64,000 bases of DNA, from the IMG/VR virus record IMGVR_UViG_3300012952_002053, positions 1 through 64,000 of that record; one strand, 5' to 3'. A program made the position numbers and the translations under genes. The stretch is from a virus (lineage: Duplodnaviria; Caudoviricetes). Of this stretch, positions 1,850-32,409 are shown one piece after another (position 1 is the stretch's first letter; each line of letters starts with the position of its first letter). The notes beneath the pieces were generated by a model. It worked only from the letters and a program-made list of their open reading frames with translations. It was not told the DNA's origin and did not search any database.

Positions 1850-2553
1850 TGATAATGCTCCTGTATGGTGTTGTCTTTACATCTCCAAGGCTTATGTCCG
1901 CCTGTGAACACTATAATTTTTACATCTTTGGGTATTTCACTGGCAGTAATATCTGTTTTTAAACTGACCATGTGGTGTAATCCCTTCTGTAATATGGTGT
2001 GTTCATAATTAATTATCCACTCTTTGGGAAAACATTTGCTATTATTGTCCAAATTACTGGTGTATTGTTCGTCACCATGGAAATATTTTCGTTGTATTTG
2101 TGCATAATCTGTTTGATAATGTTCCCATATATAAGTAAAGTCCGAAATTCTATATCTAATTACTGAACTGTTGTACTTGTGTCCTACTGCATTTGCATAG
2201 AAATCACTCACATTGTACAGTTTTACAGGCTCACCTGGCATGTAATCCCACATACAATCCAAGTTATCCACTACCACACAGTCTAAATCTATGTATAAAT
2301 TGTCTCCTGTTACTGGTAATTTCGGATTAAAGGTTTCTATTTTCGCCCACCAACCTTCATGTTGTGGTATATCCTGTATGGCTATCAGTTCTATATCACT
2401 GGGCATACCTTCTGTTTGGTCTGATATACACACAAAATTATCATATTCACAGCCGTGTCTGTCCAACATGTTCTTCATTATGTTCACATGTTCGCTGGTG
2501 TACAGCCTAGTACGTTTAGTTCCACGTTTGCATACTGTGATTATGTTTCTCAT
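1846..2553 (-). CDS. GT-A glycosyltransferase (GT8-like, phage type)
   Basis: TVCKRGT..Y...VN, FVCISD, WWAKIETF, LYIDLDCVV (DxD), YNSSV, GDEQY, IIVFTGGHKPW. Confidence 0.75.
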   Translation of the reverse strand: MRNIITVCKRGTKRTRLYTSEHVNIMKNMLDRHGCEYDNFVCISDQTEGMPSDIELIAIQDIPQHEGWWAKIETFNPKLPVTGDNLYIDLDCVVVDNLDCMWDYMPGEPVKLYNVSDFYANAVGHKYNSSVIRYRISDFTYIWEHYQTDYAQIQRKYFHGDEQYTSNLDNNSKCFPKEWIINYEHTILQKGLHHMVSLKTDITASEIPKDVKIIVFTGGHKPWRCKDNTIQEHYQ

Positions 2554-3266
2554 TTGTGTCCTATCTGCATGAATCTGGTGTATGCTGGTGTAATCATTTC
2601 ACCTACATATATAGTGTCCTTGAGTGGATACATCTGTTGCATGTCTTGTATGCTGTCAACAGGATTGATATGACCTGCAAACTCTTCGCTGTTGTTGGTT
2701 TGCATTATCACAAGTTGGTCTTCATCTATGCTGTCAAACCATAATGTACTCATATGTTCACAACTGGTATTAATAATCCAATCAGGCTTACAGTTAATAA
2801 GTTCTCCGCCTGTTTCAAAATGCATATCACTACAGTCCAACAAGTCAACATCATGTGTAACGCCTTTGTACTTCCATCCGTCTTGCACAAAGTCTCGATT
2901 TAATGTTTCACTCTTCTCTATGCTTTCAGGATCTTTGTCTATGCCATATATTCTTTCTATGGTAAAGTGCTGATGTAAACTGTGTACCATAGTGCCTATC
3001 CAACAACCTAGTATAGCAACTGTGGGGTCTGATAATCCCACAACACCATTTCTCAGAGAAATTTCGAATGCAGGGTCTACCACACTGGTATTCAATTCTT
3101 TTAGTAACCAACTCTTACTGGCTAACTGTCCTTTGCTGAATGCATGTGGTGGATAGTATGTGTTGCGTTGAACTATGTGTTCAAAGTATGTAGGTGCAGG
3201 TTGCCAAAACCCTTTGTCTATGTAATTGCTTACTGCCTTCCAACTGTCTAACTTAATTGTTTCCAT
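2550..3266 (-). CDS. Class I SAM-dependent methyltransferase-like protein
   Basis: AFSKGQLASKSWL, ILGCWIG (motif I), GIDKDP, INTSCEH, RFMQIGHK. Probable start at 3266 after a GGAG SD; the track starts at 3281. Confidence 0.65.
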   Translation of the reverse strand: METIKLDSWKAVSNYIDKGFWQPAPTYFEHIVQRNTYYPPHAFSKGQLASKSWLLKELNTSVVDPAFEISLRNGVVGLSDPTVAILGCWIGTMVHSLHQHFTIERIYGIDKDPESIEKSETLNRDFVQDGWKYKGVTHDVDLLDCSDMHFETGGELINCKPDWIINTSCEHMSTLWFDSIDEDQLVIMQTNNSEEFAGHINPVDSIQDMQQMYPLKDTIYVGEMITPAYTRFMQIGHK

Positions 3267-6200
3267 GTGTTCTCCAACCATTCGTAATCATTAATGTTGT
3301 TTAATACATCTGGTTTGTCTTTGTTTTCCAATGCAAACTCTTTACCCATGTTAGCACCTAACATAGCATCATCACAGTAATCGCAATCTGCTAGTGGGTT
3401 AAGCCATTTGTTTAATCTTCTGTCTGCATCAGGATCTTTACTTAATGCTAGTTTAACAGTTTCTCTGAATGCACTACGCCATGTGCTGTATGCATCTATG
3501 TTAAACTTAGTTGTACAACTTATCTGTGGCATACTTTTAAAACGTGTACTTAATCCTGTTGTGAAGTCCAGTCCCCAACTAGTCGCTTCCCTAACCTGTT
3601 GTGTATTAAACAACTTAACACCACCGTAACCATACTGGTCACCTGTAACAGGATTCTCACTTGCCCATACATGCACAACATCTAAATCATATTGGTCAGG
3701 TATGTAATCAAAATCAAAGTCATCATTTATCAATGCATCAGCATCCATTACCCAAAACATTTTGCTTTTGCATTTCTCAGCACAGGCTTTGTGTGCCTCA
3801 AATATTCCTTCAACACCTCTTATGTGTTGTACATAATGTCCTTTAGTATTAACCAGTTGTATGTTATGTTCAACACTTTTGATATCTTCTTTGTAACTGA
3901 TACAGTATATTTCAAAAGGTTCTATGCTACTTGCAATAGACTTAACATACTGTAAACTGTTTGCTTTAATTTTATTAAAACGTATTTTATCTGATGTTAA
4001 GTCACCCATTGCTGTTTCAGGTGGGTTGGGCCACAATCTAATTCCCCCATAACTATGTACCAACCCTGTTCTCTGATTTGTTCTTTGCCATACATGTGTT
4101 TTGTTTACGTTATCCAAATTAGGTGTGTAAGTAAACTTAAACTCTTTATCCACTATAGTATGTTCGTCTACAGTAAAGAAACATTTTAAATGTTTGCTCT
4201 CTGCATGGCATCCAAACTGTTCTAACTGAAACTTCAATCCCATACTGCCATGTTCTTTTGCTACTACACCTTGCCCAAAGTAGTATATGGGCCATGCTGT
4301 AGGTGTTGTTATTTGTCTGTACACTTGTTTTAAATCTTTAAAACTGTTGTTTACTATTTGTTTTAATGTGTATTGTTTCTTATCAAATGTTCCTTTAGGT
4401 ACTAGTCTTACACTTCTAAAGTCTTCGTTTGTGTCTTGAAACACATGAACAACTTGTTCTTCCCACTTAGTAGGAATAAAATCCCACTGCCAATCACGTG
4501 TAAATGTAACAAAAGGATCAACTATCCAGTACATATTGGTATCACAACCACTGTCAATGTCTGCTAATTGTTGTAATATATCGCCATCTTCTAACAAATA
4601 ATGCACAGGATATTCCTTTTGTGTACCGCCAACAGCACTTAATATCAACTGTTCTGGTATGCTACATGTGGTAACTTGCTCATCTGTTAGTGAATCTATG
4701 TCGTAATTAGTGGGCCAAAGCCTTAATCCACCATGTCCAATTACTAGTCCTTCGCTGTTTGTACGTTGCCAAACGTGTACATTATCTAAAAATTCCTCAT
4801 GTGGTGTAACTTGTTCCACAGTATCTACATCAATATCTGGGTCTACTGTATATACATATTGCACATCTTTGTGCGAATCTAGTATATCTTTTACACCTTT
4901 TACTGTAGTTTCTGTTAATTGTTCTATGGGCCATGTCATATCTTTACTTGCAATAGTGGGCATTTCCTTTAATTTATCGAATGCATTCTGTAATATAGTG
5001 TCATGACTTTCAAATTTAATGCCCGTAGGCACTAGTTTTACACCAGTAACTCTGCTTGTTCCATCGTGTTTCCATACATGTACAACCTCTTTATCGTATT
5101 GAGTAGGGTAATAACTAAAGTCAAAGTCCTCTTCTAGTTGTACTAAACTGTCAACTATCCACATCATTGTGCTGTTAGATTGTGTTGCTAGACGCTCGTA
5201 GACGTCGTCTAAGCCGCACTTGATATCATTTGGCTGTATGTGGTACACTGGAAATTCTCGTTGCTTACAGGCAGGTTCTCGTATGTATTTAGGTCTACCT
5301 TTCTTTTCATGTTTATGACGTAATGCAACACCACCATAATCATATTGCTTGTTAGTTATAGGATTTAGTTTTTGCCATACGTGAGCCTTACCTTCATCGA
5401 ACACATTAGGTTGGAAACTAAAGTCAAATGCATCTAATACATCTACATCTTTATCCACTACCCAGAACCATGGGAACAAACTTTTGTCTTTACCTTCCTC
5501 ATAAGTTGAAAAGACTTCATATTCTATATCCAATACTACAGGACTAAAGTCATGATTCTTTATTTCGTCATTCCAATCTGCTGGCATCCATTTTAATAAT
5601 CCATTAGCAAACACATGACATGTTTGTTTTTCAAATACATTAGGTTGCCAAGGCACTACACTAACTACATCTTTAAATGCTGTAGGCACTATCCAACTGT
5701 CTTCTGTAGGCACTATGTCTGTATCATCTGTAAATACTATAGGATAAACTTTTCCTCCTACAGGTGATTGGTCCACATACTTGGCATCATCGGTATAGGA
5801 TACAGGAACAAGTTTAATACCTCCTGCTCTGTTGTCGCTGATATTCGTAATGGCTCTTGGGTATTTGTGTTCCAAGTCATTTGGAAACTTGAATACCTGT
5901 ATGTATCGTTGGTCATATTGTTGTGGTACATATCTAAACTCCTCGTTAATTTGATGTTCACTGTCTACTAACCAGAACATTTTAGTTCTGCTTTTTCTTG
6001 CAGGTGTTTCATAATCGTTTATATCATCTGCATAGAATATATCATAACGTACAGGACATACATCTTCTTGGTATTTGTGTCTTGTTACATCAAACTCTTT
6101 ATTCATTAATCTAACACCGCCACATCTTATATCCCATGCGTCTGTGTTGTCTAATGGATAACGTTCTTCTAAATGTCCTGGTACTTTAAATACATGTATA

Positions 6201-7198
6201 AATTCTTCTTCGTGCTTTGCAGGCACATACAATAACTTGCCGTTAAATGTATGTTCTCTGTCTACAATCCAAAACCAATTTGTTTTACTACGTTCTGCAT
6301 ACTCGCTGTATGTGTCAGGTGTAAACTCATCACTGTCTATATAGAACACATCATATGCTTCATCTTCTATTGGACATGCTTTGTGTATTTTAATTTGTGC
6401 ATCTTTCCAATCCTTTGGTACAAGTCTTATACCTCCCATTTGCATTGGATATTTTTCTTTTAATTGATATGGCATTTTAAATACATGTATGAAGTTATAT
6501 TCAAATGCATTAGGTACCCAATCAACTGTTTTAACATTAATAGAATAATCTCTGTCTATTAACCAAACATAATCTTCTTCTAGTATATCACGTTGTTGCA
6601 TATCATTTACATCTTCTACATACAGTATAGGATATGTAACATTTGCATCTAAGAACTTGTGATACTTAGTTTCTGCAGATGACCATTCGCGTGGGTATAA
6701 CTTAACTCCCCCTTCAAGTTCTGGATACTTGTGTTCAAGTTGTCCACGCAAATGGAAACTGTGGATATAGTCTGGTTCAAAATTCCCTGGTGCCCAATCT
6801 ATATCATCATTTAGTATGTAGTCTTTATCTACACACCATACGTGAGTTGCATAAGCATTCTGTTCAAAGTAATTCCCTGGTGCTCCTTCAAACAGTATAT
6901 CAAAGTATTTTTTACAAACAACTTTGTTGTGCCATACTGTTTCCTCACTTCCCCCCTTTGGCGTAAGACTTACTCCGCCATAGTTCTCTTGATTCCATTT
7001 CCATACATGCATAAAGTTTTCTGTATGTACGTCTGGTTTAAAATCAAATAGTTCCCAATCAGTAATTTTAGTATTACTGTCCACAAGCCAATACATCTTT
7101 GTATTAGACTTTATATCTTTTGTATCATCAATACGAGTTGCAAAAGGTAATCTATCTTTTAGAGATTCATTATCGCCAATGTAAAATATATCGTACAT
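3248..7198 (-). CDS. 1316-aa protein of 12 tandem glycosyltransferase-like units
   Basis: Unit Y(D/P)(I/V)(F/Y)...(W/Y/F)x(V/I)D...(F/W)xP...HV(W/F)...GG(V/I)xLxP recurs 12 times. The last unit is complete and homologous to 32406-33404. Confidence 0.8.
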   Translation of the reverse strand: MYDIFYIGDNESLKDRLPFATRIDDTKDIKSNTKMYWLVDSNTKITDWELFDFKPDVHTENFMHVWKWNQENYGGVSLTPKGGSEETVWHNKVVCKKYFDILFEGAPGNYFEQNAYATHVWCVDKDYILNDDIDWAPGNFEPDYIHSFHLRGQLEHKYPELEGGVKLYPREWSSAETKYHKFLDANVTYPILYVEDVNDMQQRDILEEDYVWLIDRDYSINVKTVDWVPNAFEYNFIHVFKMPYQLKEKYPMQMGGIRLVPKDWKDAQIKIHKACPIEDEAYDVFYIDSDEFTPDTYSEYAERSKTNWFWIVDREHTFNGKLLYVPAKHEEEFIHVFKVPGHLEERYPLDNTDAWDIRCGGVRLMNKEFDVTRHKYQEDVCPVRYDIFYADDINDYETPARKSRTKMFWLVDSEHQINEEFRYVPQQYDQRYIQVFKFPNDLEHKYPRAITNISDNRAGGIKLVPVSYTDDAKYVDQSPVGGKVYPIVFTDDTDIVPTEDSWIVPTAFKDVVSVVPWQPNVFEKQTCHVFANGLLKWMPADWNDEIKNHDFSPVVLDIEYEVFSTYEEGKDKSLFPWFWVVDKDVDVLDAFDFSFQPNVFDEGKAHVWQKLNPITNKQYDYGGVALRHKHEKKGRPKYIREPACKQREFPVYHIQPNDIKCGLDDVYERLATQSNSTMMWIVDSLVQLEEDFDFSYYPTQYDKEVVHVWKHDGTSRVTGVKLVPTGIKFESHDTILQNAFDKLKEMPTIASKDMTWPIEQLTETTVKGVKDILDSHKDVQYVYTVDPDIDVDTVEQVTPHEEFLDNVHVWQRTNSEGLVIGHGGLRLWPTNYDIDSLTDEQVTTCSIPEQLILSAVGGTQKEYPVHYLLEDGDILQQLADIDSGCDTNMYWIVDPFVTFTRDWQWDFIPTKWEEQVVHVFQDTNEDFRSVRLVPKGTFDKKQYTLKQIVNNSFKDLKQVYRQITTPTAWPIYYFGQGVVAKEHGSMGLKFQLEQFGCHAESKHLKCFFTVDEHTIVDKEFKFTYTPNLDNVNKTHVWQRTNQRTGLVHSYGGIRLWPNPPETAMGDLTSDKIRFNKIKANSLQYVKSIASSIEPFEIYCISYKEDIKSVEHNIQLVNTKGHYVQHIRGVEGIFEAHKACAEKCKSKMFWVMDADALINDDFDFDYIPDQYDLDVVHVWASENPVTGDQYGYGGVKLFNTQQVREATSWGLDFTTGLSTRFKSMPQISCTTKFNIDAYSTWRSAFRETVKLALSKDPDADRRLNKWLNPLADCDYCDDAMLGANMGKEFALENKDKPDVLNNINDYEWLENTWKQLS

Positions 7199-7485
7199 TA
7201 ATATTCTTGCTCTCTAGTGTTAAAGTATTCTGCTAACTCTTCTGGGTCTAGATGTTCTAGACTAGATGTTCTTTCAAGTTCTCTTTCTATACTGGCAAAC
7301 GATAACTGTACATCACTAAACGGACAATCATCTTTATGATGTTTAACATCGTATCTACATATATGACACTTGCCTTTTAATTTCCAAATCATTCTTTCTT
7401 CATCAGACAATGACTCATCATAGAGCCAAGGTTCTTGACTCATTCTGTGATGCTTTACTACTTGTTTATTATTCATCTTGTACAT
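7198..7485 (-). CDS. Small hypothetical protein with a zinc-knuckle-like motif
   Basis: CHICRYDVKHHKDDC (C-x2-C-x5-H-x4-C). Start probably at 7485 or 7476, overlapping the upstream stop. Confidence 0.55.
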   Translation of the reverse strand: MYKMNNKQVVKHHRMSQEPWLYDESLSDEERMIWKLKGKCHICRYDVKHHKDDCPFSDVQLSFASIERELERTSSLEHLDPEELAEYFNTREQEY

Positions 7486-9022
7486 GGACTGGGACCTTAT
7501 AGTGAGTTGCAAACTCTTTTGCTTCTTGTTCTGTATTAACGATAGGCTGTCCTTTAATGTTTAAACTTGTATTAAGAACAACTGGACACCCAGACTCGGC
7601 ATGCCATTGCCTCATAGCATGATATAGTTCTGGATGATTCCTTCTATTAACTGTTTGCACTCTGCTTGTACCATCCCCATGTACTACTGCAGGTATTATA
7701 TCTGGTTGTTTGCATTTAGCCACAAACTGCATGTAAGGACTATCTATAACTCCGCCAGGCATTTCAAACCAGTCGCTGGCGTGTTCTTCTAAAACTATAG
7801 GAGCAAAAGGTCTAAACTTTTGTCTACGTTTTATTTCATTTACTTTATCTTTTATTTCATCACCTCTAGGATCAGCAAACAAACTTCTATTACCCAATGC
7901 TCTAGGTCCATACTCTGCTTTGCCATTAGCAACTCCAAATATTTGTCCTTTACGCATACTCTCTAGAAACTTCTCTTTGGGCCATTCGCCTTTTATGTTG
8001 TAACCTAAGAACGGTCCTTGCCAATTTACTTTCTCACCTGTTTGTTTGTGATAGGCTAAAGCCGCGGCACCTAAGGCACTTCCGGCATCTCCTGGGTTTG
8101 GCATTATGTGAACGTTTTGGTATTGGTCATACAATAAACTGTTAGCGACACAGTTTAATGCACAACCACCCATGAACACTAAGTTCTTGCTCTGTGTATA
8201 TGTCCAAGCCAATCTAGCATAAGCCATAATTCTTTCTTCACACACTTGTTGGGCACTAGCCGCCAAGTCAAACTGTACTTGTTCATCTTGTAATGCTTCT
8301 TCAGTCATAAACTTCTTTGGCAAACCTTTACTCATATTAATTGTGTGTAAACATTCATGCAAGTTATCATCTGCATTTTCATGTTTAAATAGTTCTTTGT
8401 TTATTTTATCTGCATACACAGGATTACCATATGCCGCCATACCCATTAAGATGTATTCATCTTCCATAGGTTTTAAACCTACAGCACTTGTAATAGCACT
8501 ATAGAATAAACCTAAACTGTTAGGATAGTTTGTTTCATGTAGTAACTCCATTTTAGTTTTACCATAGTTGTCGTTACCCCAACGATATATTGTTGATGTT
8601 TGATATTCGCCTATAGCATCTATAGTCATTATTACTGCATCTTTAAAATGCTCAGGTGCTGTCATTATACCAGCCGCCGCATGACTTTCGTGATGTAAGC
8701 AATTAATAATTGGGATACCTTTCAACTGTGGATAAAACTTTTCAATCCATTCTTCAGCAGTTGGCTCTGTGAATGCCGCTTTGATACTTGCCCAAGTGAA
8801 TTGTTTTAGTCTACGTTTGTTTTTTAGTTTACTGCTTTCATGTAAAACAATAATGTCTGGTAATCCATACTTTAATGTGTCCTTCATAAGACGTTGATTT
8901 AAGTATGCATCGTTTTTGACTCTGCTGTATCTTTCTGAATGACCAGCAAATAATATTTCGCCATCTTCTATGACACATGTACTTGCGTCATGAAACATGC
9001 TACTAATTCCTAATATTCTCAT
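7469..9022 (-). CDS. nodU: O-carbamoyltransferase, NodU/CmcH family
   Basis: HDAS, ERYSRVKND, HHESHAA, EYILMGMAAYG, GGCALNC, DAGSALGAA, EYGPRALGNRS, RPFAP, HGDGTSRVQTV, LNTSLN. Confidence 0.95.
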   Translation of the reverse strand: MRILGISSMFHDASTCVIEDGEILFAGHSERYSRVKNDAYLNQRLMKDTLKYGLPDIIVLHESSKLKNKRRLKQFTWASIKAAFTEPTAEEWIEKFYPQLKGIPIINCLHHESHAAAGIMTAPEHFKDAVIMTIDAIGEYQTSTIYRWGNDNYGKTKMELLHETNYPNSLGLFYSAITSAVGLKPMEDEYILMGMAAYGNPVYADKINKELFKHENADDNLHECLHTINMSKGLPKKFMTEEALQDEQVQFDLAASAQQVCEERIMAYARLAWTYTQSKNLVFMGGCALNCVANSLLYDQYQNVHIMPNPGDAGSALGAAALAYHKQTGEKVNWQGPFLGYNIKGEWPKEKFLESMRKGQIFGVANGKAEYGPRALGNRSLFADPRGDEIKDKVNEIKRRQKFRPFAPIVLEEHASDWFEMPGGVIDSPYMQFVAKCKQPDIIPAVVHGDGTSRVQTVNRRNHPELYHAMRQWHAESGCPVVLNTSLNIKGQPIVNTEQEAKEFATHYKVPVHVQDE

Positions 9023-9955: not shown

Positions 9956-11247
9956 TTTAATCTACTCCATAGTTGTGGCAAACTTTGTTCTATGCTTTGG
10001 TCTCTTTTCTCATCTAATAGTAATGTGTACTTTTTAAATATTTCCATTTGTTGTTCTGCATCGTCATTTACATTACTGTCATCTAATGCATTGATTAATC
10101 CTAATATACTTTGCTTGTTACGTTCATCATTATCAAAGTATGTGCTTTTGTTTAACCATTGCTGTAAATTTGTTTGTGCTTCAACTCTTATATCCTTAGG
10201 CAAGTTTCTTATGTCTAAACATTTAGGATAGTTGTTTAATAAAAAACTAATATCTATTCTACGTCCTGTGTCTGCTAGTATCTGTTCTGCATAGTCAAGT
10301 AAGTCTGTTATTGTTAGTATGTTATATATTTGTACAACTGGACTAAACAATATATTACCAACAACATCAGATGTTGCATAGTCTCTGATATGCTTGTCTA
10401 CAATACTCCAAGTACTTCCACTTCTAATATATTCGTTTGTTGTTCCATAGCCATCAACACTTAAACACATCAACACATCTTTAAACTTGGCTATTAAGTC
10501 TAAAAACCTTGGTTGTATGTTTGTCATATTACTATTAAATACTAAATCTATATTATCGTTTATTCCGAGCTCGACGCATTTTTCGAGGATCCAATACACA
10601 CGTTGGATAATTGTGGGCTCACCCCCTGTGAAGTAAAGCCTGTTGACACTAGGCAACCATGTTTCCACTGTGCTAAGGAACCCAGGATCATCAAACCAAG
10701 GCTGAGTGTAATCACTGAAATCATTCCAATGACTTGTTTCCACGATAAACTTTCTTTCTTCTTCATTATATAATTCCTCATCTTTTAATTCTTTATAGAT
10801 GGCACTACTGTTTTGACTCTGACACATTCTGCAACGCAAGTTACATAATGTTCCTAATCTAAAATCTAAGTACTGTGGTGATTCTTCCACCACATAATCA
10901 TTGTCAATACTTTTATCAATAATTTGTTGTATTTGTTCTGCATTAGGATGAAAGCCTAACCAGTCCTTTATATAGTTTTCCCTATAACTAGGTATTCCTA
11001 AATCTTCTAAATCATAGCAAGGCTCACATCCGTCTACACGTTCGCCTTCTATCATTTGACGTCTTATCTTTTTATAATGATTGTTATTCCAAACTGTGCC
11101 TATGTCATCACCTTTGTTTAACATCAATATACTTCCGTCATCATTCTTTATCTGTCCATTAGCAACACAACAAAAGTTTACAGTACTGCTAGGTTGTGTC
11201 ATTACATGTATCCAAGGATAAGGACAAAACGTTTTACTATATGTCAT
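9946..11247 (-). CDS. N-terminal twitch-domain radical SAM protein #1
   Basis: FCPYPWIH..CC..CEPC auxiliary-cluster motif, CNLRCRMC, FTGGEP, SNMTN, SVDG. Start at 11247 after a GGAG SD; the track starts at 11271. Confidence 0.9.
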   Translation of the reverse strand: MTYSKTFCPYPWIHVMTQPSSTVNFCCVANGQIKNDDGSILMLNKGDDIGTVWNNNHYKKIRRQMIEGERVDGCEPCYDLEDLGIPSYRENYIKDWLGFHPNAEQIQQIIDKSIDNDYVVEESPQYLDFRLGTLCNLRCRMCQSQNSSAIYKELKDEELYNEEERKFIVETSHWNDFSDYTQPWFDDPGFLSTVETWLPSVNRLYFTGGEPTIIQRVYWILEKCVELGINDNIDLVFNSNMTNIQPRFLDLIAKFKDVLMCLSVDGYGTTNEYIRSGSTWSIVDKHIRDYATSDVVGNILFSPVVQIYNILTITDLLDYAEQILADTGRRIDISFLLNNYPKCLDIRNLPKDIRVEAQTNLQQWLNKSTYFDNDERNKQSILGLINALDDSNVNDDAEQQMEIFKKYTLLLDEKRDQSIEQSLPQLWSRLNWT

Positions 11248-11860
11248 GTTTGTCTCCATACCTTGTATCAAATTCTATTTTACCATATGCAACTGCTATG
11301 TCTGAGTATCTTGCATGACAGTTAGTAATAAATTTTCTTACATTATCATAATCTTCTATTGCGTCCTCATGCTTTATAGACTTCTTGTGTTCTAAATGAC
11401 TCCAATCTTCTTGTAGTAATTGTTCCATAGTAACATGCTTTATAGATTTCCAAGGAAGAAACTTAGTTACATATTTCATATATGTATTAAAACTCACATG
11501 TCTAATTACTTCTCGTTTAATTGTTTGCTTGTCTACTACAATCTTTTCAGGTAAGTCTGCAACTCCATGCCAAACATCTGTGTGATGAGATACAATACTA
11601 CTACATATTTGGCTAGTAATATTTCCTCTAGTGTTTACAATCAAATCCCAATCCTGTGTTTGTTCTGGTAATTGTTTTAAATGACATTGCACTATAAAAT
11701 CAAAATCAAATGGAAAGAAACTTTCAGTTATTTGATATTCATATAAGGATTGTTGTTCATGCGTTGCTGTAAAGTAAACTTTATATCCGTCTTGCTCATA
11801 CTCGTCTAACAGCAAATGCGATCCTGTTCTACCTGATGTTTTTAATAATACTCTACTCAT
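11237..11860 (-). CDS. Sulfotransferase-like protein
   Basis: N-terminal strand followed by SGRTGSHLL (5'-phosphosulfate-binding-like loop). VNTRGN..QICS resembles the 3'-PB region. Confidence 0.5.
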   Translation of the reverse strand: MSRVLLKTSGRTGSHLLLDEYEQDGYKVYFTATHEQQSLYEYQITESFFPFDFDFIVQCHLKQLPEQTQDWDLIVNTRGNITSQICSSIVSHHTDVWHGVADLPEKIVVDKQTIKREVIRHVSFNTYMKYVTKFLPWKSIKHVTMEQLLQEDWSHLEHKKSIKHEDAIEDYDNVRKFITNCHARYSDIAVAYGKIEFDTRYGDKHDI

Positions 11861-13101
11861 ATCCTGTCGTGCTTATCTAATAATTTTATTTCGTCCATAG
11901 TACCCATTAGTTCCATAGCATTCTGACTTTCTGCTTTAAAGTATGGCTCCATATATTTCCATAATTCAGGAAACGTATCTGCTAAACTTTCATCTCTATA
12001 CTTGTCACTGAAACTTGTTTGTCTAACAAACTCATCCATGTATCCGTCATAGTGTTCTTGGTTCATAAAGTTTAATGTACTTTGTATTCTTGGATCATTG
12101 TTTCCTCTAAACTTTTCTGTTATAACATTCTTTATATTTTTAGGTAATGCTTTAGGACTTATGTGCTGTGGTACATACACCATATTAAAATGTATCTCAC
12201 CATCTATGTTATGTTCTGCATCATACTTTAATAATTCATCCATATACATAACATTAAAAATACTTACAGTATAGAAAACATTAGTTCTAATAAAGTTTGT
12301 ATTCTTAAACTTCCAATAGTTTTCTATTACTTCATCGAACTGTTGTGGATGTCTTATGTAATTAAACCTTTCACCTACTCCGTCTATACTAAAGAACACT
12401 TGTACATCTTTAAATTCTTTTAGCAAGTCCATGTGTTGTTTTGGATATATAGAACCATTTGTATTATAACTTAACGTAATATCTTTTGCTCTACCTTTGT
12501 CTACAAGTGTTTGTAATATATCAAAGTGTCTTTTTATTAAGAAAGGCTCACCACCAAAAAACTCTAAACTTTCTACTTCTTCAATTTGATTTTCTATGTC
12601 GTCCCAAAACTTTTCGTTTAGTTCGGGCCAACGTCCTAGTCTACCCATGAGGTGTGCAAACTGATTAGTTTCACCATCACGTTCTATTTCTTCTGGTACC
12701 CATTGACTACTAGCAAAGCCTGTACATATTCTACATTTGGTATTACATATATTTCCTAATTTTAAATCCATGCTCTTAGGCTTTGTATGTTCTAAATTAT
12801 CTATATGATGAGGAAACTTTTTAAGTTCACGTAATCGTTTACTTTCTATACCTGCTTCTTCTTCGTTCCAGCAGTTATAACATGACTCAGGCTTTTTACC
12901 ATCTAAAAAGTCTTGCTTAAGATTTGCTAACCATTCGCTATCCCATGCATCTTTTAATGTATGACCATCTGCTAAATTTATCCCTGGTGCTGTTTCTTGC
13001 ATTACACAGCACACACCAATCTCCCCATTGGTGCGAGCCTCTTGGTTTATCCAAGGCAATATGCAAAAATGTTCTGGTCTAGTCATCTCGTTCCTCATCA
13101 T
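11857..13101 (-). CDS. N-terminal twitch-domain radical SAM protein #2
   Basis: FCILPW..CC..CYNC, CNTKCRIC, FFGGEP, YNTNG, SIDG. The real start may be 13086. Confidence 0.9.
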   Translation of the reverse strand: MMRNEMTRPEHFCILPWINQEARTNGEIGVCCVMQETAPGINLADGHTLKDAWDSEWLANLKQDFLDGKKPESCYNCWNEEEAGIESKRLRELKKFPHHIDNLEHTKPKSMDLKLGNICNTKCRICTGFASSQWVPEEIERDGETNQFAHLMGRLGRWPELNEKFWDDIENQIEEVESLEFFGGEPFLIKRHFDILQTLVDKGRAKDITLSYNTNGSIYPKQHMDLLKEFKDVQVFFSIDGVGERFNYIRHPQQFDEVIENYWKFKNTNFIRTNVFYTVSIFNVMYMDELLKYDAEHNIDGEIHFNMVYVPQHISPKALPKNIKNVITEKFRGNNDPRIQSTLNFMNQEHYDGYMDEFVRQTSFSDKYRDESLADTFPELWKYMEPYFKAESQNAMELMGTMDEIKLLDKHDRI

Positions 13102-14389
13102 ACCACGGTCTTAAATCTTCTAATTCAGGAAACACTTGGAACAAGTTCTCTGCTCTAAACCTATCCATCTCTTTTGCTTCTTGTAAACTATCAGATAATA
13201 AATGACTATCATCGCCATCCATAAACTGATGTAAACTTTTAAACGTGTCTGTTACACGACCTACGGTATCTCTATCTCCAATCCATTCTAATGTTTCTTC
13301 AATATTCTTTTGTACTTGCTTTCTCATGTGTTCAGGTAATACTGTTGCTCTGTGAACATGCTTACCAAGTAAAATGTTTACGCCAAAGTCTTTTGGCTCT
13401 ATGAATCCTATATCACATAGTTCTCTATAAAAGTTGCATACATCTAAAGCATTAAACATGCTGACAGTACAACTAATATTAAAATCTGTATCGGGCAGTT
13501 CTTTTTTCATACGTTCTCTATTAGCAAGTGTTTCATTCCATATGGTACCTTTACGCAGATACTCTCCTCTTTTCCATCCTGCATCTAAACTTGCACCAAC
13601 ACTTACCTCATCAAACTTTTTCCATAACTCTATGGCGTCTTGTTCTTTATAAACTAATTTACTAAAGTTTGTATTATAAAAAATTCTCATAGGAGTATCT
13701 TTTTTGGTTCTGCCCATTTCTACTAACTTGTTCATTATATACCAATGCTCGTCCATTATCAATGGCTCACCACCTGCCCAATATATTTTCTCCACAGTAT
13801 CTAAGTATGGATCAAACTGTTCCATAAATTCTGTATTACCTTTTCTTATTTGCAGTATGGGTGTAGGGTTTGTAGGAGTTCTATTAAACTTACTGTCCGT
13901 TGCATCATGGAACCACTGGCTACTTAAATCAGGTCCACATGTTCTACATCTCATGTTACAGATATTACTAAAACGTATGTCCATATAAGTTAAGTGTACT
14001 TTGTCTACACTACCATCTACATTTGTTTGTTGTACTATATCTGCTTTACTTTTATGTATGTCAAACTTTTCTGAAATAAATTCACTGTTGCTACGTTTAC
14101 GCAGAGTGTCATGTCCTATGTCTTCTAACTCCCAACATCTAGAACAGTTGTCTATACGTTTGCCATTTAACATATCAAGTCTAAACTTTTTCATGTTATC
14201 ACTATTGTAACATTCGTCTAAGTCCATTTCATTTAAGTTACCGATTGGACTATGGTGTTCACTTAAACAACAAGTAAACACTCTGCCATCGGGCCAAGGG
14301 TGCATGTGTATCCATGGTAGGATACAAAACGCATCGCCTTTGGCTAACTCTTTAATCTCTTCTATTGTTTTATTAATTTTATTATCCAT
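13079..14389 (-). CDS. N-terminal twitch-domain radical SAM protein #3
   Basis: FCILPWIH..CC..CSRC, CNMRCRTC, WAGGEP, YNTNF, SLDA. Probable start at 14389; the track starts at 14434. Confidence 0.9.
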   Translation of the reverse strand: MDNKINKTIEEIKELAKGDAFCILPWIHMHPWPDGRVFTCCLSEHHSPIGNLNEMDLDECYNSDNMKKFRLDMLNGKRIDNCSRCWELEDIGHDTLRKRSNSEFISEKFDIHKSKADIVQQTNVDGSVDKVHLTYMDIRFSNICNMRCRTCGPDLSSQWFHDATDSKFNRTPTNPTPILQIRKGNTEFMEQFDPYLDTVEKIYWAGGEPLIMDEHWYIMNKLVEMGRTKKDTPMRIFYNTNFSKLVYKEQDAIELWKKFDEVSVGASLDAGWKRGEYLRKGTIWNETLANRERMKKELPDTDFNISCTVSMFNALDVCNFYRELCDIGFIEPKDFGVNILLGKHVHRATVLPEHMRKQVQKNIEETLEWIGDRDTVGRVTDTFKSLHQFMDGDDSHLLSDSLQEAKEMDRFRAENLFQVFPELEDLRPWYDEERDD

Positions 14390-15129
14390 GCGTTCAAGTC
14401 CCACTCCCACCAACGTTCTCCTCCTTGATGCCAAGCACCAGGTTTGTTATGGTGGTTGTTATGCCAACCCTCTCCAAATGTTATTAAGTTTACTAAGTGG
14501 TGGTTTACACTTTCATCTTTTGTGTCCCATGTTCTATATCCCAACCACTTTAATCCTTTGCCATGTCCCCATGTGTTAAAGGCACCTGTTGCCCATACAC
14601 ATAAACTTGCTGGCACAAGGTATGCATAAATTATTAGCATAGGATCTATTACTGCTAGTATAGAACAGTATGCCAATATGTATGCAAAGAAATAATGATG
14701 TGCATTCATTACATCTTTATTTTTAATCCAGTCTTTTGCATTACGCAAATTCCAACGTCCTGTATCTGTTAAGTCTAATGTCCAACTTTGAAACAGACTC
14801 ATATGATGTGGGCTATGTGGATCTAACTCTTTGTCAGAGTATTTGTGATGTTCTCTGTGAGTTACTATATAACCAAATACAGAACTTACACTTGCCAACG
14901 TTGCACTTACTATTAATATTCGTTCCCAAAACTTATTAGTTTTAAATACTTTATGAGCAAAGTATCTATGTTGCCCAACACTATTACCTATACTTGCAAA
15001 CCAAAAATATACTGCTAGTGATATCCACCAGTAGTTGCTTGGTCCTAGTACCACAGCCGTAGCAAGTCCTAAATGCATTAAGCATCTAAGTATTACTAAC
15101 TTAGGTCTAGTAAATGCTAGTATTTCCAC
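14362..15129 (-). CDS. Membrane fatty-acid desaturase (delta-9 / DesC-OLE1-like)
   Basis: Three His boxes HRYFAH, HREHH and GEGWHNNHH, plus DPHSP and hydrophobic helices. Confidence 0.92.
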   Translation of the reverse strand: MEILAFTRPKLVILRCLMHLGLATAVVLGPSNYWWISLAVYFWFASIGNSVGQHRYFAHKVFKTNKFWERILIVSATLASVSSVFGYIVTHREHHKYSDKELDPHSPHHMSLFQSWTLDLTDTGRWNLRNAKDWIKNKDVMNAHHYFFAYILAYCSILAVIDPMLIIYAYLVPASLCVWATGAFNTWGHGKGLKWLGYRTWDTKDESVNHHLVNLITFGEGWHNNHHNKPGAWHQGGERWWEWDLNAWIIKLIKQ

Positions 15130-16357
15130 TTTCTTCTACCTTGCTTACGAGCTCACTGAATATTTTTCTCCAGTCACTCTTATCATTATTATCCATTAAA
15201 TCGTTGTAACGACAAAACTGTTCCCACTTCAACTCGTCCCATTCGTCATTATTGAACATGCTTAATAACGTTCCGAGTTTGTGGTCATTACCCAATGCTT
15301 CTCTAAATTTTGTATGTATCAACTCTCTCGCCTTAACCGGTATTACCGCAGGACTTAGGTAATCAGGATCATACACGAAGTTCATGTCAACCTCTATCCC
15401 AATGCTGTTTGCCCATTCGAAAAACTCAGGTAATGTCGCATAGTTATATGCACTCACAGTTTGTGTTATCCTTAATGTTAATTTATCTTTATTATCTAAA
15501 AGTTTACTGACTGTATTATTTACAGCCTGCCAACTTGTTCCAGTTCTTATAAATGCATTACGTTCATGTAAGTCATCTATACTAAGACAAATCCTTGCTT
15601 CTTTAAACTCGGGCCATAGTTCCAAAGCAATTGGTGGTAACATTGTGCAATTAATATTATACCATAGTGTAATATTTTTGCTTCTACCACTCTCTACTAA
15701 CTTTCGTAAGTATTCCCAATGTTGTTTTATTAATGTTGGTTCTCCTCCATTAATATAAAGTACTTCTAAATTTGGAGCAGAGTTATATAAGTCTTCATAA
15801 AAATTATCATCCTCTGCCCACTTAAAGTCTTCAGGAAAATTTAATCCTAAGTAACCTTTGTTGATGAAGTCTGCTTTCTCAACAATGTCTTTGTAATCTT
15901 CCAACCACTTACTACTACTTGCCGGATTGCAAGTACGACAGCGGACGTTACATACATTACCAAGACGCAACTCAACAAAACGAAGGTCCATAGGAATACT
16001 GCCATCTTCCCTAGTAATCCCACTCGCCCAATCAAAGGAGTTTTGTGGAAAAACTGTTTTCTCATGGTCACGTTTGGATTTAATTCCTTTATCTTCTTCA
16101 TTGTAGCACCTCATACATGCCTTAGGCATCTTATTATTTAACATATCTAAGCGAACTTCTTTATAGTAGTCACTATTCATATGTTCTTCTATCGTTTGTT
16201 TATTTAAATCAAAGAATTCGTTGTGTTCCTCCTTATAATTCCTTGCTCGGTTCAAGCCGTCAGTATGGTCACTTATACAACATAGTGTCACGCCACCGTG
16301 CGGATGTGTTGCTAAATGTTGCCAAGGTAGTGGGCAAAATGTATCTGGTCTACTCAA
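15107..16357 (-). CDS. N-terminal twitch-domain radical SAM protein #4
   Basis: FCPLPWQH..CC..CMRC, CNVRCRTC, INGGEP, SIDD. Confidence 0.9.
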   Translation of the reverse strand: MSRPDTFCPLPWQHLATHPHGGVTLCCISDHTDGLNRARNYKEEHNEFFDLNKQTIEEHMNSDYYKEVRLDMLNNKMPKACMRCYNEEDKGIKSKRDHEKTVFPQNSFDWASGITREDGSIPMDLRFVELRLGNVCNVRCRTCNPASSSKWLEDYKDIVEKADFINKGYLGLNFPEDFKWAEDDNFYEDLYNSAPNLEVLYINGGEPTLIKQHWEYLRKLVESGRSKNITLWYNINCTMLPPIALELWPEFKEARICLSIDDLHERNAFIRTGTSWQAVNNTVSKLLDNKDKLTLRITQTVSAYNYATLPEFFEWANSIGIEVDMNFVYDPDYLSPAVIPVKARELIHTKFREALGNDHKLGTLLSMFNNDEWDELKWEQFCRYNDLMDNNDKSDWRKIFSELVSKVEESGNTSIY

Positions 16358-17787
16358 TTGCTATACTCCCCTTGACTGACAGGCAGGAACCCTGCTGTCG
16401 ACACAGTTTCATATTCATGAATATAATCAAATGATGATTTAACTAATTCATACAGTTCAGGAAATACCTGAACAAAGTTTTCTTCTCTGTATATATCACC
16501 TCCAACTATTTGTGATTTAAAAATTTCCCATTTCTTTTCTATACTACGTTCGTCAAAGAATTTTAATTTACTTTCATCGAACTTATTTCTTAAACTATCT
16601 ACTACACTAGAACCATTCTCATATAGTGGAGAGTTCATAAAATCTATTAATGCTTGTATCTCACTTTTGTATTGAGGCAACCATTCATGTCTTAATAGTT
16701 TGTCTGTAATTATTTTTTTAGCATTAGCCGGCAATACACTTGCACATATCCATTTAGGATAGTGTACAGCATTGTTCCATATCTTAAAGTTTGGATAATG
16801 TTGTTTAAAGTAATCGTGAAACTCTGGCAAGTACATTATATTTAATGCACTTACAGTATGTGTAATTTGTACAAATACTGGATACTCACTGTTGTGCAAT
16901 TCATAATAGTAATCTAAATTTTGTTTTACTTCACTCCAATCACCTGGATGTCGTAAGTATGTGAACCTGTCTTCTATACCATCTATGCTTACACTAAATG
17001 CCAAGTCCTTAAAGTTCTTTGCCATCTTATCTAAAAAGTTTTTGTCTGCAATAGTTCCATTAGTGCTAAGTGTGAGTGCTATCTTTTTTGACCTACCTGT
17101 TTCAATTAGTATATCTACAAAACGTTTGAACTCTTTCATATAAAAAGGTTCACCGCCCATTATTTCTAAACGTAATACTTCAGAAGTCCACTCGTCCATT
17201 GTTTTCCAAAATGCACTATTCTCCATATCGTTCATATGTATCTTTGCTGTAGTTTCCCAAAAAGGAATATTTCTATCTACTGCTTCTTCTTTCCATTTAC
17301 TGCTATAGTTTGTATTGCAACTTCTACATTTTAAGTTACAAGTGTTATCAAATATTAATTGTGCGTCTATTAATCTATCTGGTTCTTCGTCCCACACTAT
17401 AGCATCTTTGCCGTACCATTGCTTGTAGTAATCATTGTACTGCATACGTTTAGATACTTTACCATTATCTTCATCTATCCAACATGTTTGACAGTTGCCT
17501 ATGTCTTGTCCATTCCTGATTTGATTTCTGTACTCTCGCATAGTATCGCTTTTTAAAATATCAAGCATACCATGTTCTCCCAAGTTAAAATCTTGTCCTT
17601 GGTTATCTTTAATTCTTTCTGTAGCAATACAACAAGTTCTTACAGTACCGCCCGGCTCATTACTGATATGACTCCACAGCAAGGCACAGTACTTGTAGTC
17701 TGGATCAAAAAGTTGCTTTTCTTCGTGTGCCTGATATTGGAACCCGAATCTATTTTGCTTGGCTGTTGTCATAATTTTCTTTAACAA
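16354..17787 (-). CDS. N-terminal twitch-domain radical SAM protein #5
   Basis: YCALLWSH..CC..CQTC, CNLKCRSC, IMGGEP, STNG, SIDG. The real start may be 17772. Confidence 0.9.
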   Translation of the reverse strand: MLKKIMTTAKQNRFGFQYQAHEEKQLFDPDYKYCALLWSHISNEPGGTVRTCCIATERIKDNQGQDFNLGEHGMLDILKSDTMREYRNQIRNGQDIGNCQTCWIDEDNGKVSKRMQYNDYYKQWYGKDAIVWDEEPDRLIDAQLIFDNTCNLKCRSCNTNYSSKWKEEAVDRNIPFWETTAKIHMNDMENSAFWKTMDEWTSEVLRLEIMGGEPFYMKEFKRFVDILIETGRSKKIALTLSTNGTIADKNFLDKMAKNFKDLAFSVSIDGIEDRFTYLRHPGDWSEVKQNLDYYYELHNSEYPVFVQITHTVSALNIMYLPEFHDYFKQHYPNFKIWNNAVHYPKWICASVLPANAKKIITDKLLRHEWLPQYKSEIQALIDFMNSPLYENGSSVVDSLRNKFDESKLKFFDERSIEKKWEIFKSQIVGGDIYREENFVQVFPELYELVKSSFDYIHEYETVSTAGFLPVSQGEYSN

Positions 17788-24450: not shown

Positions 24451-25872
24451 TTACCTGCTGTTGTGTTTCGGGTCTGTGCGACTCCACCAGTCCCAAAGTT
24501 CTGGGTCCGCACTATATATTTCTTCTATTGTAATACTGTTACCTGGGTAACCGTCCTCTCTAATTCTTGCTATTTCTCTTTGCCATTGCCTACCATTGAA
24601 GAACTGATCCTCTGCTGTATCAGGAAACTGTTCTTGAAACGTAGGTGTATTTAATATTTGATTAAGTTGATTAATTACTGTTTGCTGTTTGGGTGTTATA
24701 ATAGGTGTAAGGTCTTCTATTAGTTTACGCACAATCCTATCTAATATGTGTCTGGGCCAACTCATAAAACTAAACACAATGTCAGGATGGAATGCAAACA
24801 TATTCTTTGTTTCTATTTTAACATCTAGTTCTAATGCATAGTTTACAAAATCACGTAAGCCAAATAGCCCTGGTCCTGTTAGTGTTAGATCCATTAGCAT
24901 TTTATCGTTGCCGCCTGGTAATGCTACACCTTCTCTAAAGTTTTGGTCCCACTCTTCCCAATCAAGTCCTGTTCTAATAAACTCTCCTATACGTCCTATA
25001 CCGTCTATACTTGCACACATAGTCCAGTCTTTTGCTTGTGGTAACCAATCATATAAGTAATGCTTTCCATAACGCACTCTGCTTAAATTACTATTGTATC
25101 TTAAATGAACTTTGTTTAAATTATTATCTTCAGCAAGTCTATTCATTGCTCGCCAATGTATATCGTACATTAAAGGTTCACCACCTACCCAATAAATTTC
25201 TTCTACAATACCTCTGCAAATGCTATCCCAAAACTCTTCTTCCACAACTTCCTTTTGAAACTTTTCTATAATCTTTTTATTTTCCGGAACCATGAACGGT
25301 TGATTCTCAGGAGTCCAATGGTCATGTTTTCTTTTCTCAGCCTCCCAAGAAGAACTTAGTTGCTCTCCACACATTCTACATTTAAAGTTACATAAGTTGC
25401 TTACACGATAATCAAAACTGATAGGCTCCATTGTAGTATAGCCGTTTTCATCTGTACTATCAAAGCATTGGTCTATTTTGTCATTAAACAAGAATCCTGT
25501 AAACCATTGTCTGTAATTACTTTGACTTAACAAATTATCGTTACACACATCACATTGTGGAATCTTTTCACCTGCCATAAGTTTCTTTCTTATATCCATC
25601 ATGTATGGACTGTTCCAATGTTCTTTAAGTGTAACAACATGTTGCTTATAATCTTCTATAGTACCAGACTCTTTTACAGCACCATACTTTGCATCATTAC
25701 TGGCATCTATATATTGTTTTTGGAATTTGTGTTCTTCTCTACTAGCACAACACATACGTCTTTCTGATTGTGGACTGATATAGGTATGGGTCCAAGGTGC
25801 TGTACAAAACACTTTGTTTTCTGAATCAGGATGAACGTTTCCGTGTTCCCATTTTGGTTTAATTTTTTTCAT
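24451..25872 (-). CDS. N-terminal twitch-domain radical SAM protein #6
   Basis: FCTAPWTH..CC..CDVC, CNFKCRMC, WVGGEP, YNSNL, SIDG. Confidence 0.9.
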   Translation of the reverse strand: MKKIKPKWEHGNVHPDSENKVFCTAPWTHTYISPQSERRMCCASREEHKFQKQYIDASNDAKYGAVKESGTIEDYKQHVVTLKEHWNSPYMMDIRKKLMAGEKIPQCDVCNDNLLSQSNYRQWFTGFLFNDKIDQCFDSTDENGYTTMEPISFDYRVSNLCNFKCRMCGEQLSSSWEAEKRKHDHWTPENQPFMVPENKKIIEKFQKEVVEEEFWDSICRGIVEEIYWVGGEPLMYDIHWRAMNRLAEDNNLNKVHLRYNSNLSRVRYGKHYLYDWLPQAKDWTMCASIDGIGRIGEFIRTGLDWEEWDQNFREGVALPGGNDKMLMDLTLTGPGLFGLRDFVNYALELDVKIETKNMFAFHPDIVFSFMSWPRHILDRIVRKLIEDLTPIITPKQQTVINQLNQILNTPTFQEQFPDTAEDQFFNGRQWQREIARIREDGYPGNSITIEEIYSADPELWDWWSRTDPKHNSR

Positions 25873-26428
25873 ATATTCCTGACCAACAATTATGTTTACT
25901 TTTTTCCCAGCCTGTTAAATCTATATCATTGTAAGATTCATTTAATATTTTTTGTGTATATCCTACACTTTCTAAAAGCCTAGTAATTTCCTTTTCGTTC
26001 AATCTAAAATTAAATTGAAAAGGATTACTTATACCTCTATCACTAAATGCATTACCTGGTAAATTAAATTCTTCTTCATCTATGCTTAATATACAATGTA
26101 TAGATTCTATGATTAACGTTTTAGGTTCGCTTATATTAATTATCTGTTCTAGTAAATGTATTGGGCTATGTAAATGATACAATAAACCCATACACACTAC
26201 AACATCATATTTCCCGTGGCTATTTTTATAAAAGTCGTTTGCTGTACCTACAAATGTATTTGCATTTAAAGGTGCTACATCTGTGTTAGGCTCTACACTT
26301 AACACTTTTTTAGGTTTGTGTTTTAATATTTCTTTAGTAAAGTGTCCAGCAAAACTTCCAAGTTCTAAAACTGTTTTGTCTTCACAATGTGCAAATAATG
26401 TATCCAGTACGTCACTATATTTCTTCAT
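25859..26428 (-). CDS. Class I SAM-dependent methyltransferase
   Basis: VLELGSFAG (motif I), LSVEP, YDVVVCMGLLYHL. Confidence 0.85.
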   Translation of the reverse strand: MKKYSDVLDTLFAHCEDKTVLELGSFAGHFTKEILKHKPKKVLSVEPNTDVAPLNANTFVGTANDFYKNSHGKYDVVVCMGLLYHLHSPIHLLEQIINISEPKTLIIESIHCILSIDEEEFNLPGNAFSDRGISNPFQFNFRLNEKEITRLLESVGYTQKILNESYNDIDLTGWEKSKHNCWSGIYEKN

Positions 26429-29122: not shown

Positions 29123-29295
29123 ATTCTTTCGTGTATATAATAAATTACCATCTTAGCAAAAAATTCTATGCCTCCAATGGCTAATGCTACACTTACATCT
29201 CCAATAATAAAATATGCTATTCCAATTGTCGTGAGTGTTGCTGTAATTCTCCATGTAAATGTTTTTAGTAAACTTCTAAGTTTGCTTTCCTTCAT
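29107..29295 (-). CDS. DUF2061-type small membrane protein
   Basis: RSLLKTFTWRITAT...YYIHERIW signature. This family commonly lies next to APS kinase genes. Confidence 0.85.
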   Translation of the reverse strand: MKESKLRSLLKTFTWRITATLTTIGIAYFIIGDVSVALAIGGIEFFAKMVIYYIHERIWNKV

Positions 29296-32248: not shown

Positions 32249-32409
32249 TACCAATTATGTACTATATTTGTCATAATAAAAAATGCACAAACAACGTTGA
32301 CTAGTACAACAAATGTTCTTATAATTGTAACATAGTCATCATACTCTGCTGTTTTGTCGTCACTGAATGAACCTATGGCATATTTCCATATAGTCCAAAT
32401 TTTCTTCAT
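32248..32409 (-). CDS. Small membrane protein (53 aa; missing from the ORF track)
   Basis: MKKIWTIWKYAIGSFSDDKTAEYDDYVTIIRTFVVLVNVVCAFFIMTNIVHNW*. Overlaps of 4 nt and 1 nt fill the gap exactly. It resembles a family of small marine myophage proteins. Confidence 0.75.
   Translation of the reverse strand: MKKIWTIWKYAIGSFSDDKTAEYDDYVTIIRTFVVLVNVVCAFFIMTNIVHNW

Follow-up and report, generated by a model that had tools for sequence, protein, structure and literature searches.

What does a bacteriophage gain from a protein that repeats a glycosyltransferase-like unit twelve times in tandem? The question is raised by a 64,000-nucleotide stretch of viral DNA (positions 1 to 64,000 of IMG/VR record IMGVR_UViG_3300012952_002053, hereafter the window), in which a gene designated P0001 encodes an acidic protein of 1316 amino acids (aa). 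The source record is a viral contig of 84,961 bp with a CheckV completeness estimate of 23%; it carries baseplate-wedge and tail-fibre genes and belongs to a large aquatic phage, and the family of P0001 is one of large aquatic myoviruses. An earlier note on this DNA suggested that the protein might be a processive assembly line, a chain-length ruler or a sugar-nucleotide-binding scaffold. Here, we describe a computational analysis of its repeat units, their predicted structures, their conservation and their copy number among relatives. We present evidence that P0001 very probably has one working catalytic domain, unit 12, preceded by eleven dead copies. The parts of the gene on the minus strand are as follows.

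3248 to 7198, minus strand: repeat-protein gene P0001, a single open reading frame (ORF) of 1316 aa with no internal stops.
6911 to 7198, minus strand: unit 1 (aa 1-96), predicted truncated GT-A-like module; DxD lost, D/E-x-N in orthologs.
5741 to 6910, minus strand: units 2-5 (aa 97-486), conserved N-terminal block.
5513 to 5740, minus strand: unit 6 (aa 487-562), apparently decayed (SWIVP), inside expansion zone A.
5243 to 5512, minus strand: unit 7 (aa 563-652), boundary unit between zones A and B.
3902 to 5242, minus strand: units 8-11 (aa 653-1099), two A/B pairs (8-9 and 10-11), expansion zone B.
3509 to 3901, minus strand: unit 12 (aa 1100-1230), predicted complete compact GT-A domain.
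3251 to 3508, minus strand: C-terminal helical domain (aa 1231-1316), with the WRSAFRETVKL helix, common to the single-unit family.

The 1316-aa frame given in the earlier note is indeed present and free of stops. Its start codon and the TAA stop of a small upstream ORF share bases (TAATG), and its last codons are overlapped by the start of the downstream gene D243. The protein is strongly acidic, with a net charge of -73, which disfavours DNA as its acceptor or anchor. None of its 19-residue Kyte-Doolittle windows exceeds 0.67, indicating a soluble protein; the lack of a hydrophobic segment argues against a membrane or secreted location.

The protein consists of twelve tandem units of 76-131 aa (76-127 aa for units 1-11), whose core motifs lie at aa 36, 120, 211, 309, 408, 501, 578, 679, 782, 890, 1007 and 1148, a spacing of 77-141 aa. 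In a leave-one-out test, each unit was scored against a profile of the other eleven, with sequence shuffles as the control. Units 1-5 and 7-12 scored 31-65 bits, against shuffle maxima of 5-14 bits, and unit 6 scored 11 bits, within the shuffle range. All twelve acidic motifs on which the repeat count had been based are present, and eleven of the units rise above the shuffles, but unit 6, judged on its own score, is a decayed unit as far as its sequence tells. The HV(W/F) and GGxxLxP motifs that were said typically to follow each core are found in most units, but the former is replaced by HSF in unit 2 and QVF in unit 5, and the latter by GLLKWMP in unit 6, TGVKLVP in unit 8 and RSVRLVP in unit 10. 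The assignment of DxD to units 2, 3, 7, 9 and 12 (DKD, DRD, DKD, DPD and DAD) and of DxE to units 4 (DRE) and 5 (DSE) is correct for the P0001 sequence. Identity between units is 12-41% at the protein level, and the only DNA repeats within the gene are stretches of 18-65 nt that are 72-83% identical. Because the DNA repeats are short and diverged and protein identity is low, the duplications are taken to be old; the same short stretches show no sign of ongoing slippage at DNA repeats. A self-BLASTP of P0001 at E 1e-3 did not detect the repeats, since the units are too diverged and profiles are required.

To which fold do these units belong? AlphaFold2 models were built for aa 650-1316 (mean predicted local distance difference test score, pLDDT, 87.8; predicted template modelling score, pTM, 0.67) and aa 1-665 (mean pLDDT 81.7; pTM 0.55) from alignments of 34 colinear relatives. 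The best Foldseek matches of the C-terminal half in the PDB are GT-A-fold proteins, with E down to 1e-5; apart from the sugar nucleotidyltransferase HddC they are glycosyltransferases, among them Mimivirus R699, the chondroitin polymerase K4CP, LH3, COLGALT1, beta-4-GalT, PBCV-1 A64R and BcsA. Unit 12 (model residues 445-585, aa 1094-1234) aligns in VIA-align with GT-A glycosyltransferases and nucleotidyltransferases at Z 10-11 over 130-143 residues, with a root-mean-square deviation (rmsd) of 2.8-3.7. For the N-terminal half, Foldseek returned no PDB match at a threshold of E 1e-3. When 48,161 PDB representatives were searched exhaustively with VIA, the best 50 matches of this half fell on unit 1 (aa 1-100), and all 50 have the GT-A / nucleotide-diphospho-sugar transferase fold. 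These alignments cover 87-101 residues at rmsd 2.5-3.3 and Z 5.6-7.5, and span 170-210 residues of the targets; although a Z near 7 is middling alone, the uniformity of the match list makes the assignment convincing. The models thus place units 1 and 12 in the GT-A / nucleotide-diphospho-sugar transferase fold, supporting the GT-A-like fold first proposed from sequence, and the term half-domain used for the units is apt in that each aligns across a 170-210-residue span of its targets. The structural check suggested for every unit returned a GT-A fold for units 1 and 12, to which units 2-11 are linked by sequence. The same fold includes sugar nucleotidyltransferases, and is by itself no proof of sugar transfer.

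The models also separate unit 12 from the rest. A short unit is modelled as strand 1, one helix, three strands that carry W-x-V-D, H-V-W and GG-x-x-L in turn, and a long strand that closes the unit; units 1-11 contain 5-6 strands and 0-2 helices. Unit 12 alone has a second strand-helix (model residues 474-493; VQHIRGV-EGIFEAHKACAEK; sequence of the extra element, VQHIRGVEGIFEAHKACAEK) together with five C-terminal helices. The common core of GT-A enzymes comprises 231 positions with 8 strands and 6 helices (PMC7185993). No unit attains this full core: units 1-11, at 76-127 aa, are by these models stripped GT-A cores, and unit 12, at about 135 aa plus helices, is also reduced.

Residue conservation was examined in 25 colinear 12-unit orthologs that are 44-95% identical. 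In unit 12, D1152-A-D1154 is invariant in all 25, and DxD is likewise invariant in the single-unit family described below. Units 1-11 mostly retain the first Asp; the second acid varies or is missing in units 1, 3, 6, 7, 8, 10 and 11. The candidate G-loop of unit 12, YGYGGVKLF, is invariant, and GGxxL is retained in most units. A candidate catalytic base, D1211, lies in an invariant WG(L/I)DFTTGL segment of unit 12, at a position where the paralog has E; units 1-11 have neither this segment nor the WRSAFRE helix, the restriction of that helix to unit 12 having been recognised in the earlier note. The helix aligns with the FRAGFREGVKM of a second gene in the window.

32406 to 33404, minus strand: single-unit paralog P0002, 332 aa, an end-to-end homolog of unit 12 plus the C-terminal domain.

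Unit 12 and the C-terminal domain also align end to end with relatives of P0002 in other phages and with gp350 of Ralstonia phage RsoM2USA (AVH85278.1). Identity to this single-unit family is 27-37%, and the shared invariants are AHK, DxD, the GG-K loop, (D/E)F and the FRE-VK helix. This uncharacterised phage family has one unit and no repeat array, in contrast to the twelve units of P0001. Since the second strand-helix, the invariant DxD and candidate G-loop, the candidate Asp and the C-terminal domain are found together only in unit 12, we read P0001 as one enzyme with eleven pseudo-domains rather than as twelve enzymes.

Conservation is distributed along the protein in zones. Among the orthologs, the fraction of invariant columns is 23% in unit 1; 41, 41, 46 and 38% in units 2, 3, 4 and 5; 17, 10, 8, 7, 13 and 11% in units 6 through 11; 36% in unit 12; and 28% in the C-terminal domain. 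Units 2-5, though 'dead', are therefore the most conserved part of P0001, and units 6-11 the least. Units 2-5 contain extra invariant polar loops that are absent from unit 12, L-E-x-(K/R)-Y-P before the candidate G-loop and K-x-H after it, and their most conserved loops are placed where GT-A enzymes contact substrates.

The zones of low conservation are also those in which copy number varies. Comparison of every unit of 41 relatives with the twelve units of P0001 yielded a common plan of units 1-2-3-4-5, zone A, unit 7, zone B and unit 12. Zone A holds 0-13 modules of the unit-6 type or the unit-2/3 type, and zone B holds pairs alternating as 8-9, 10-9 or 10-11. Unit 7 is present in all typed relatives of at least 599 aa except P0130, and short forms have the compositions 5-7-10-11-12, 10-11-12, 8-12, or 12 alone. 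Between relatives of 79-95% identity the differences are single clean indels of 210-217 aa (one A/B pair) or 118 aa (one unit), as in P0023 versus P0029, which are 94.8% identical; indels of 86-88 aa separate the members of one 48%-identical pair. The comparison of repeat number among relatives proposed in the earlier note thus reveals variation in whole units or pairs.

The setting of the gene is also conserved. Its immediate neighbours in the window are the following.

2550 to 3266, minus strand: D243 (P0123), probable S-adenosylmethionine (SAM) methyltransferase suggested by weak leads; its ATG at 3266 overlaps the end of P0001.
7198 to 7512, minus strand: small intervening ORF, with the carbamoyltransferase upstream and the repeat gene downstream; stop codon (TAA) overlapping the P0001 ATG.
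7469 to 9022, minus strand: NodU/CmcH-type carbamoyltransferase, just upstream of the repeat gene in 46 of 55 related loci.

In nearly all of the 55 loci the order is radical-SAM genes, DUF6071, carbamoyltransferase, (small ORF), repeat protein and D243, and the triad of carbamoyltransferase, repeat protein and D243 is maintained in about 50. Immediately downstream of the repeat gene, or nearly so, 51 loci have a D243 homolog (220-240 aa). D243 has no match in Pfam; its leads to class-I methyltransferases are weak but consistent (PDB profile E of about 0.13 to BpumL and Hen1; Atlas clusters with Methyltransf_31), and it is probably a SAM methyltransferase. The wider cluster encodes radical-SAM/SPASM enzymes, a sugar-nucleotide dehydrogenase, a phosphomannomutase, a short-chain dehydrogenase/reductase, a methyltransferase, a 2-oxoglutarate oxygenase, a desaturase and an APS (adenosine 5'-phosphosulfate)-kinase fusion. 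By its predicted gene content it is a glycan-building and glycan-decorating operon, and the repeat gene sits at the end of it.

From these results we propose the following model. P0001 would be a cytoplasmic phage glycosyltransferase in which unit 12, a compact GT2-like GT-A domain, is the sole catalytic domain, and units 1-11 would have kept the core strands and lost the parts that bind sugar nucleotides and carry out catalysis. The conserved units 1-5 may bind a target that is itself conserved (the acceptor, or a partner that anchors the protein); the copy-variable units 6-11 may form a spacer whose length can be tuned in unit steps; and anchor and spacer together would set the reach of the catalytic head. 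The sugar added by unit 12 would then probably be carbamoylated and/or methylated by the flanking enzymes. The anchor-plus-spacer role of units 1-11 is put forward tentatively and we do not hold it to be the probable one taken separately; for the statement as a whole, joining the single-enzyme architecture, these roles and decoration by the flanking enzymes, we judge the balance to be slightly favourable.

Parts of this model have precedents. Human B3GLCT, a beta-1,3-glucosyltransferase, has two GT-A domains and cannot bind its acceptor without the inactive extra one (PMC13597200); COSMC, itself a dead GT-A protein, acts as a scaffold and chaperone (PMC7185993). Like P0001, B3GLCT has a catalytic C-terminal GT-A domain preceded by an inactive copy that probably arose by duplication of the catalytic one; it differs in having one full-size dead domain, whereas P0001 has eleven truncated ones (9-21 in long relatives), and no sequence similarity between the two proteins was detected. 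COLGALT1/GLT25D1, LH3 and Mimivirus R699 (PDB 9evj, 6fxr and 9dzs), the best Foldseek matches of the C-terminal half at E 1e-5 to 1e-3, are also built of tandem GT-A domains, some of them non-catalytic, but have two or three full domains rather than twelve units; TM-scores (template modelling scores) to these proteins are about 0.15 over the whole model, so that the likeness is at the level of the domain. The fold of unit 12 itself is that of SpsA (1h7l), WrtF (9omh), STIV A197 (2c0n) and PBCV-1 A64R (2p6w), at Z 9.7-10.7 over 133-137 residues, and STIV A197 also matches unit 1 at Z 7.5. With these small GT2-type GT-A enzymes unit 12 shares a DxD after the fourth strand, and it differs from them in being more compact and in having its own C-terminal helical domain. 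A comparison for the spacer is offered by WbdD and WbbB of O-antigen synthesis, in which a coiled coil of variable length sets the distance from anchor to active site. The spacer proposed for P0001 would instead consist of dead enzyme domains, and a membrane anchor or polymer product is putative.

A stronger form of the proposal, that P0001 is a ruler made of dead enzyme domains in which units 1-5 dock on a fixed phage or host structure and units 6-11, varying by single units or A/B pairs, set the reach of the active unit, seems to us unlikely as a full account; the quantised variation in copy number lends indirect support to the ruler first suggested in the earlier note. A bolder variant is that the polar loops of units 2-5 (L-E-x-K-Y-P and K-x-H) may make up a novel site, for binding or catalysis, that has nothing to do with glycosyl transfer.

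The alternative that survives best, which we nevertheless consider improbable, is that the dead units form a lectin-like or substrate-binding array that grips a long acceptor of repetitive structure (a polysaccharide or a fibre protein rich in repeats), on which the catalytic head acts processively; unit number would in that case follow the substrate's length or period and not a distance. The dead GT-A domain of B3GLCT does bind the acceptor, and the substrates of that enzyme are tandem repeats (PMC13597200); the position of the most conserved loops of units 2-5 at GT-A substrate-contact sites agrees with this, as does the presence in the same window of a 6327-aa protein and tail-fibre genes. 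However, units 6-11 retain little beyond fold-defining residues (7-17% invariant), unlike binding sites, related loci do not keep fibre genes next to the repeat gene, and the charge of the protein disfavours an anionic polymer as ligand.

More doubtful still is the idea that the whole of P0001 is a structural or scaffolding rod, a component of the virion or of its assembly in which the GT-A fold has been recycled and unit 12 is inactive too. This would fit the lack of a significant match to any curated family and the appearance, among the fold matches of unit 1, of Vaccinia H3, a non-enzymatic envelope protein with a glycosyltransferase fold. Yet the DxD, candidate G-loop and acidic residue of unit 12 are invariant and common to the single-unit paralog family, and the gene lies between two transferases, ending a sugar-modification operon in about 50 loci, and not among structural genes.

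That P0001 is a multi-site assembly line, with several active units adding successive sugars, is the least probable of all and can almost be set aside: D-x-(D/E) does occur in units 2, 4, 5 and 9 of most orthologs, and multi-GT-A enzymes exist (K4CP and LARGE1, both among the fold matches), but units 1-11 are far shorter than the 231-position common core (PMC7185993), lack the second strand-helix of the nucleotide-binding half and the candidate-base segment WG(L/I)DFTTGL, do not conserve DxD in seven of eleven cases, and are gained and lost so freely among close relatives that a defined product is hard to envisage. The same missing strand-helix, candidate-Asp segment and second acid speak against the sugar-nucleotide-binding scaffold that the earlier note had offered beside the processive assembly line.

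Several observations weigh against a single glycosyltransferase with eleven inert copies. Units 2-11 are assigned the fold of units 1 and 12 through profile homology, and GGVKL as G-loop and D1211 as xED base are assigned by motif position. The acidic D-x-(D/E) of units 4, 5 and 9 is retained in nearly all orthologs and many polar residues of units 2-5 are invariant, so some 'dead' units may bind ligand or even be catalytic. A profile of the single-unit family searched against PDB sequences found chance hits only and no solved structure. The Pfam family PF00535 (Glycos_transf_2) matches P0001 at 12.6 bits (E 0.14, aa 1085-1161), below its threshold of 23.3. Isolated unit 12 scores 13.6 bits and two relatives 17-19.5 bits, all below threshold as well, and some relatives carry a precomputed PF00535 flag; we take this sub-threshold match as a hint.

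The repeat-protein family is widespread and almost confined to viral contigs. A word-indexed search returned 365 relatives of 723-2303 aa, and the 120 listed together with P0001 carry 10-22 units. Searching 1.84 billion representatives with a unit profile gave 646 clusters (50% identity), whose proteins have 1-22 units each. In IMG/VR there are 55 related loci, on contigs of up to 339,794 bp; a single protein query gave no result in the related-loci search, and an alignment query was needed. Among prokaryote genomes, one for each of 185,579 species, a single locus was found (L068; CAZJZH010000028.1, 14,187 bp), a contig of a gammaproteobacterial metagenome-assembled genome with a gene for a repeat protein of 54% identity; probably this is phage DNA assigned to the bacterial bin in error. 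Two uncharacterised members, from uncultured Caudovirales, are in BFVD.

Searches of the curated collections and the literature found no account of the family. PHROGs has no match for P0001 or P0002, NCBIfam gave none, and phmmer searches of the PDB with both proteins gave chance hits only. Megablast of 20 kb against a phage collection found nothing, and in a tblastn search of that collection only the C-terminal unit was matched, in Ralstonia phage RsoM2USA. The family was described in no paper found by literature searches on tandem glycosyltransferase repeats in jumbo phages and pseudo-glycosyltransferase arrays, nor was there an account of it among carbamoyltransferase and radical-SAM clusters in marine myoviruses. 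The earlier statement that no characterised protein resembles P0001 thus holds across Pfam, PHROG, NCBIfam, PDB sequence and literature searches. In kind, P0001 would be a GT-A glycosyltransferase with accessory pseudo-GT-A domains; the analysis of P0001 adds the zoning of conservation, the map of unit types in the expansion zones and the conserved triad.

Other genes of the window have unusual features of their own. Four radical-SAM paralogs (13079-14434, 15107-16357, 16354-17787 and 24451-25872, minus strand) have the SPASM iron-sulfur domain at about aa 8-111 and the radical-SAM core at about aa 130-315, so that the usual order is inverted, and homologs of these SPASM-first proteins occur in 37 of the 55 related loci, with several copies per locus. 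A NodU-type carbamoyltransferase, a methyltransferase, an APS-kinase/nucleotidyltransferase fusion and a putative sulfotransferase-like gene (7469-9022, 11237-11860, 25859-26428 and 29276-30040, minus strand) recall the Nod-factor decoration set of NodU, NodS, NodH and NodPQ, a resemblance only. An alternative oxidase (34039-34605, minus strand; PF01786, E 1.6e-68) lies within the glycan/radical-SAM cluster, and a phosphomannomutase of eukaryotic type (37422-38117, minus strand; PF03332, E 3e-24) is present in this phage. A single ORF of 6327 aa (42258-61241, minus strand), in which YHYH (PF14240, aa 1274-1453, E 4e-34) is the sole recognisable domain, has a baseplate-wedge homolog on one side (61247-63652) and a tail-fibre-like gene on the other (39616-41580), which makes a giant fibre or baseplate-associated protein its probable identity.

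To our knowledge, GT-A enzymes are almost always single-domain proteins. Where dead domains accompany them, as in B3GLCT and COLGALT1, or act as a separate protein, as in COSMC, they have been instructive on acceptor recognition and on the evolution of pseudo-enzymes. The P0001 family extends the idea of the pseudo-domain to as many as about 21 stripped copies, with clean steps in copy number between near-identical phages, and so provides a natural length series for asking whether arrays of pseudo-enzymes are rulers, clamps or scaffolds. The family also marks a conserved, uncharacterised glycan-decoration module of large aquatic myoviruses, comprising a carbamoyltransferase, a glycosyltransferase and a methyltransferase. 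If the ruler were true, the gain and loss of pseudo-domains would let these phages adjust the position on a target, or the distance along it, at which glycosylation takes place.

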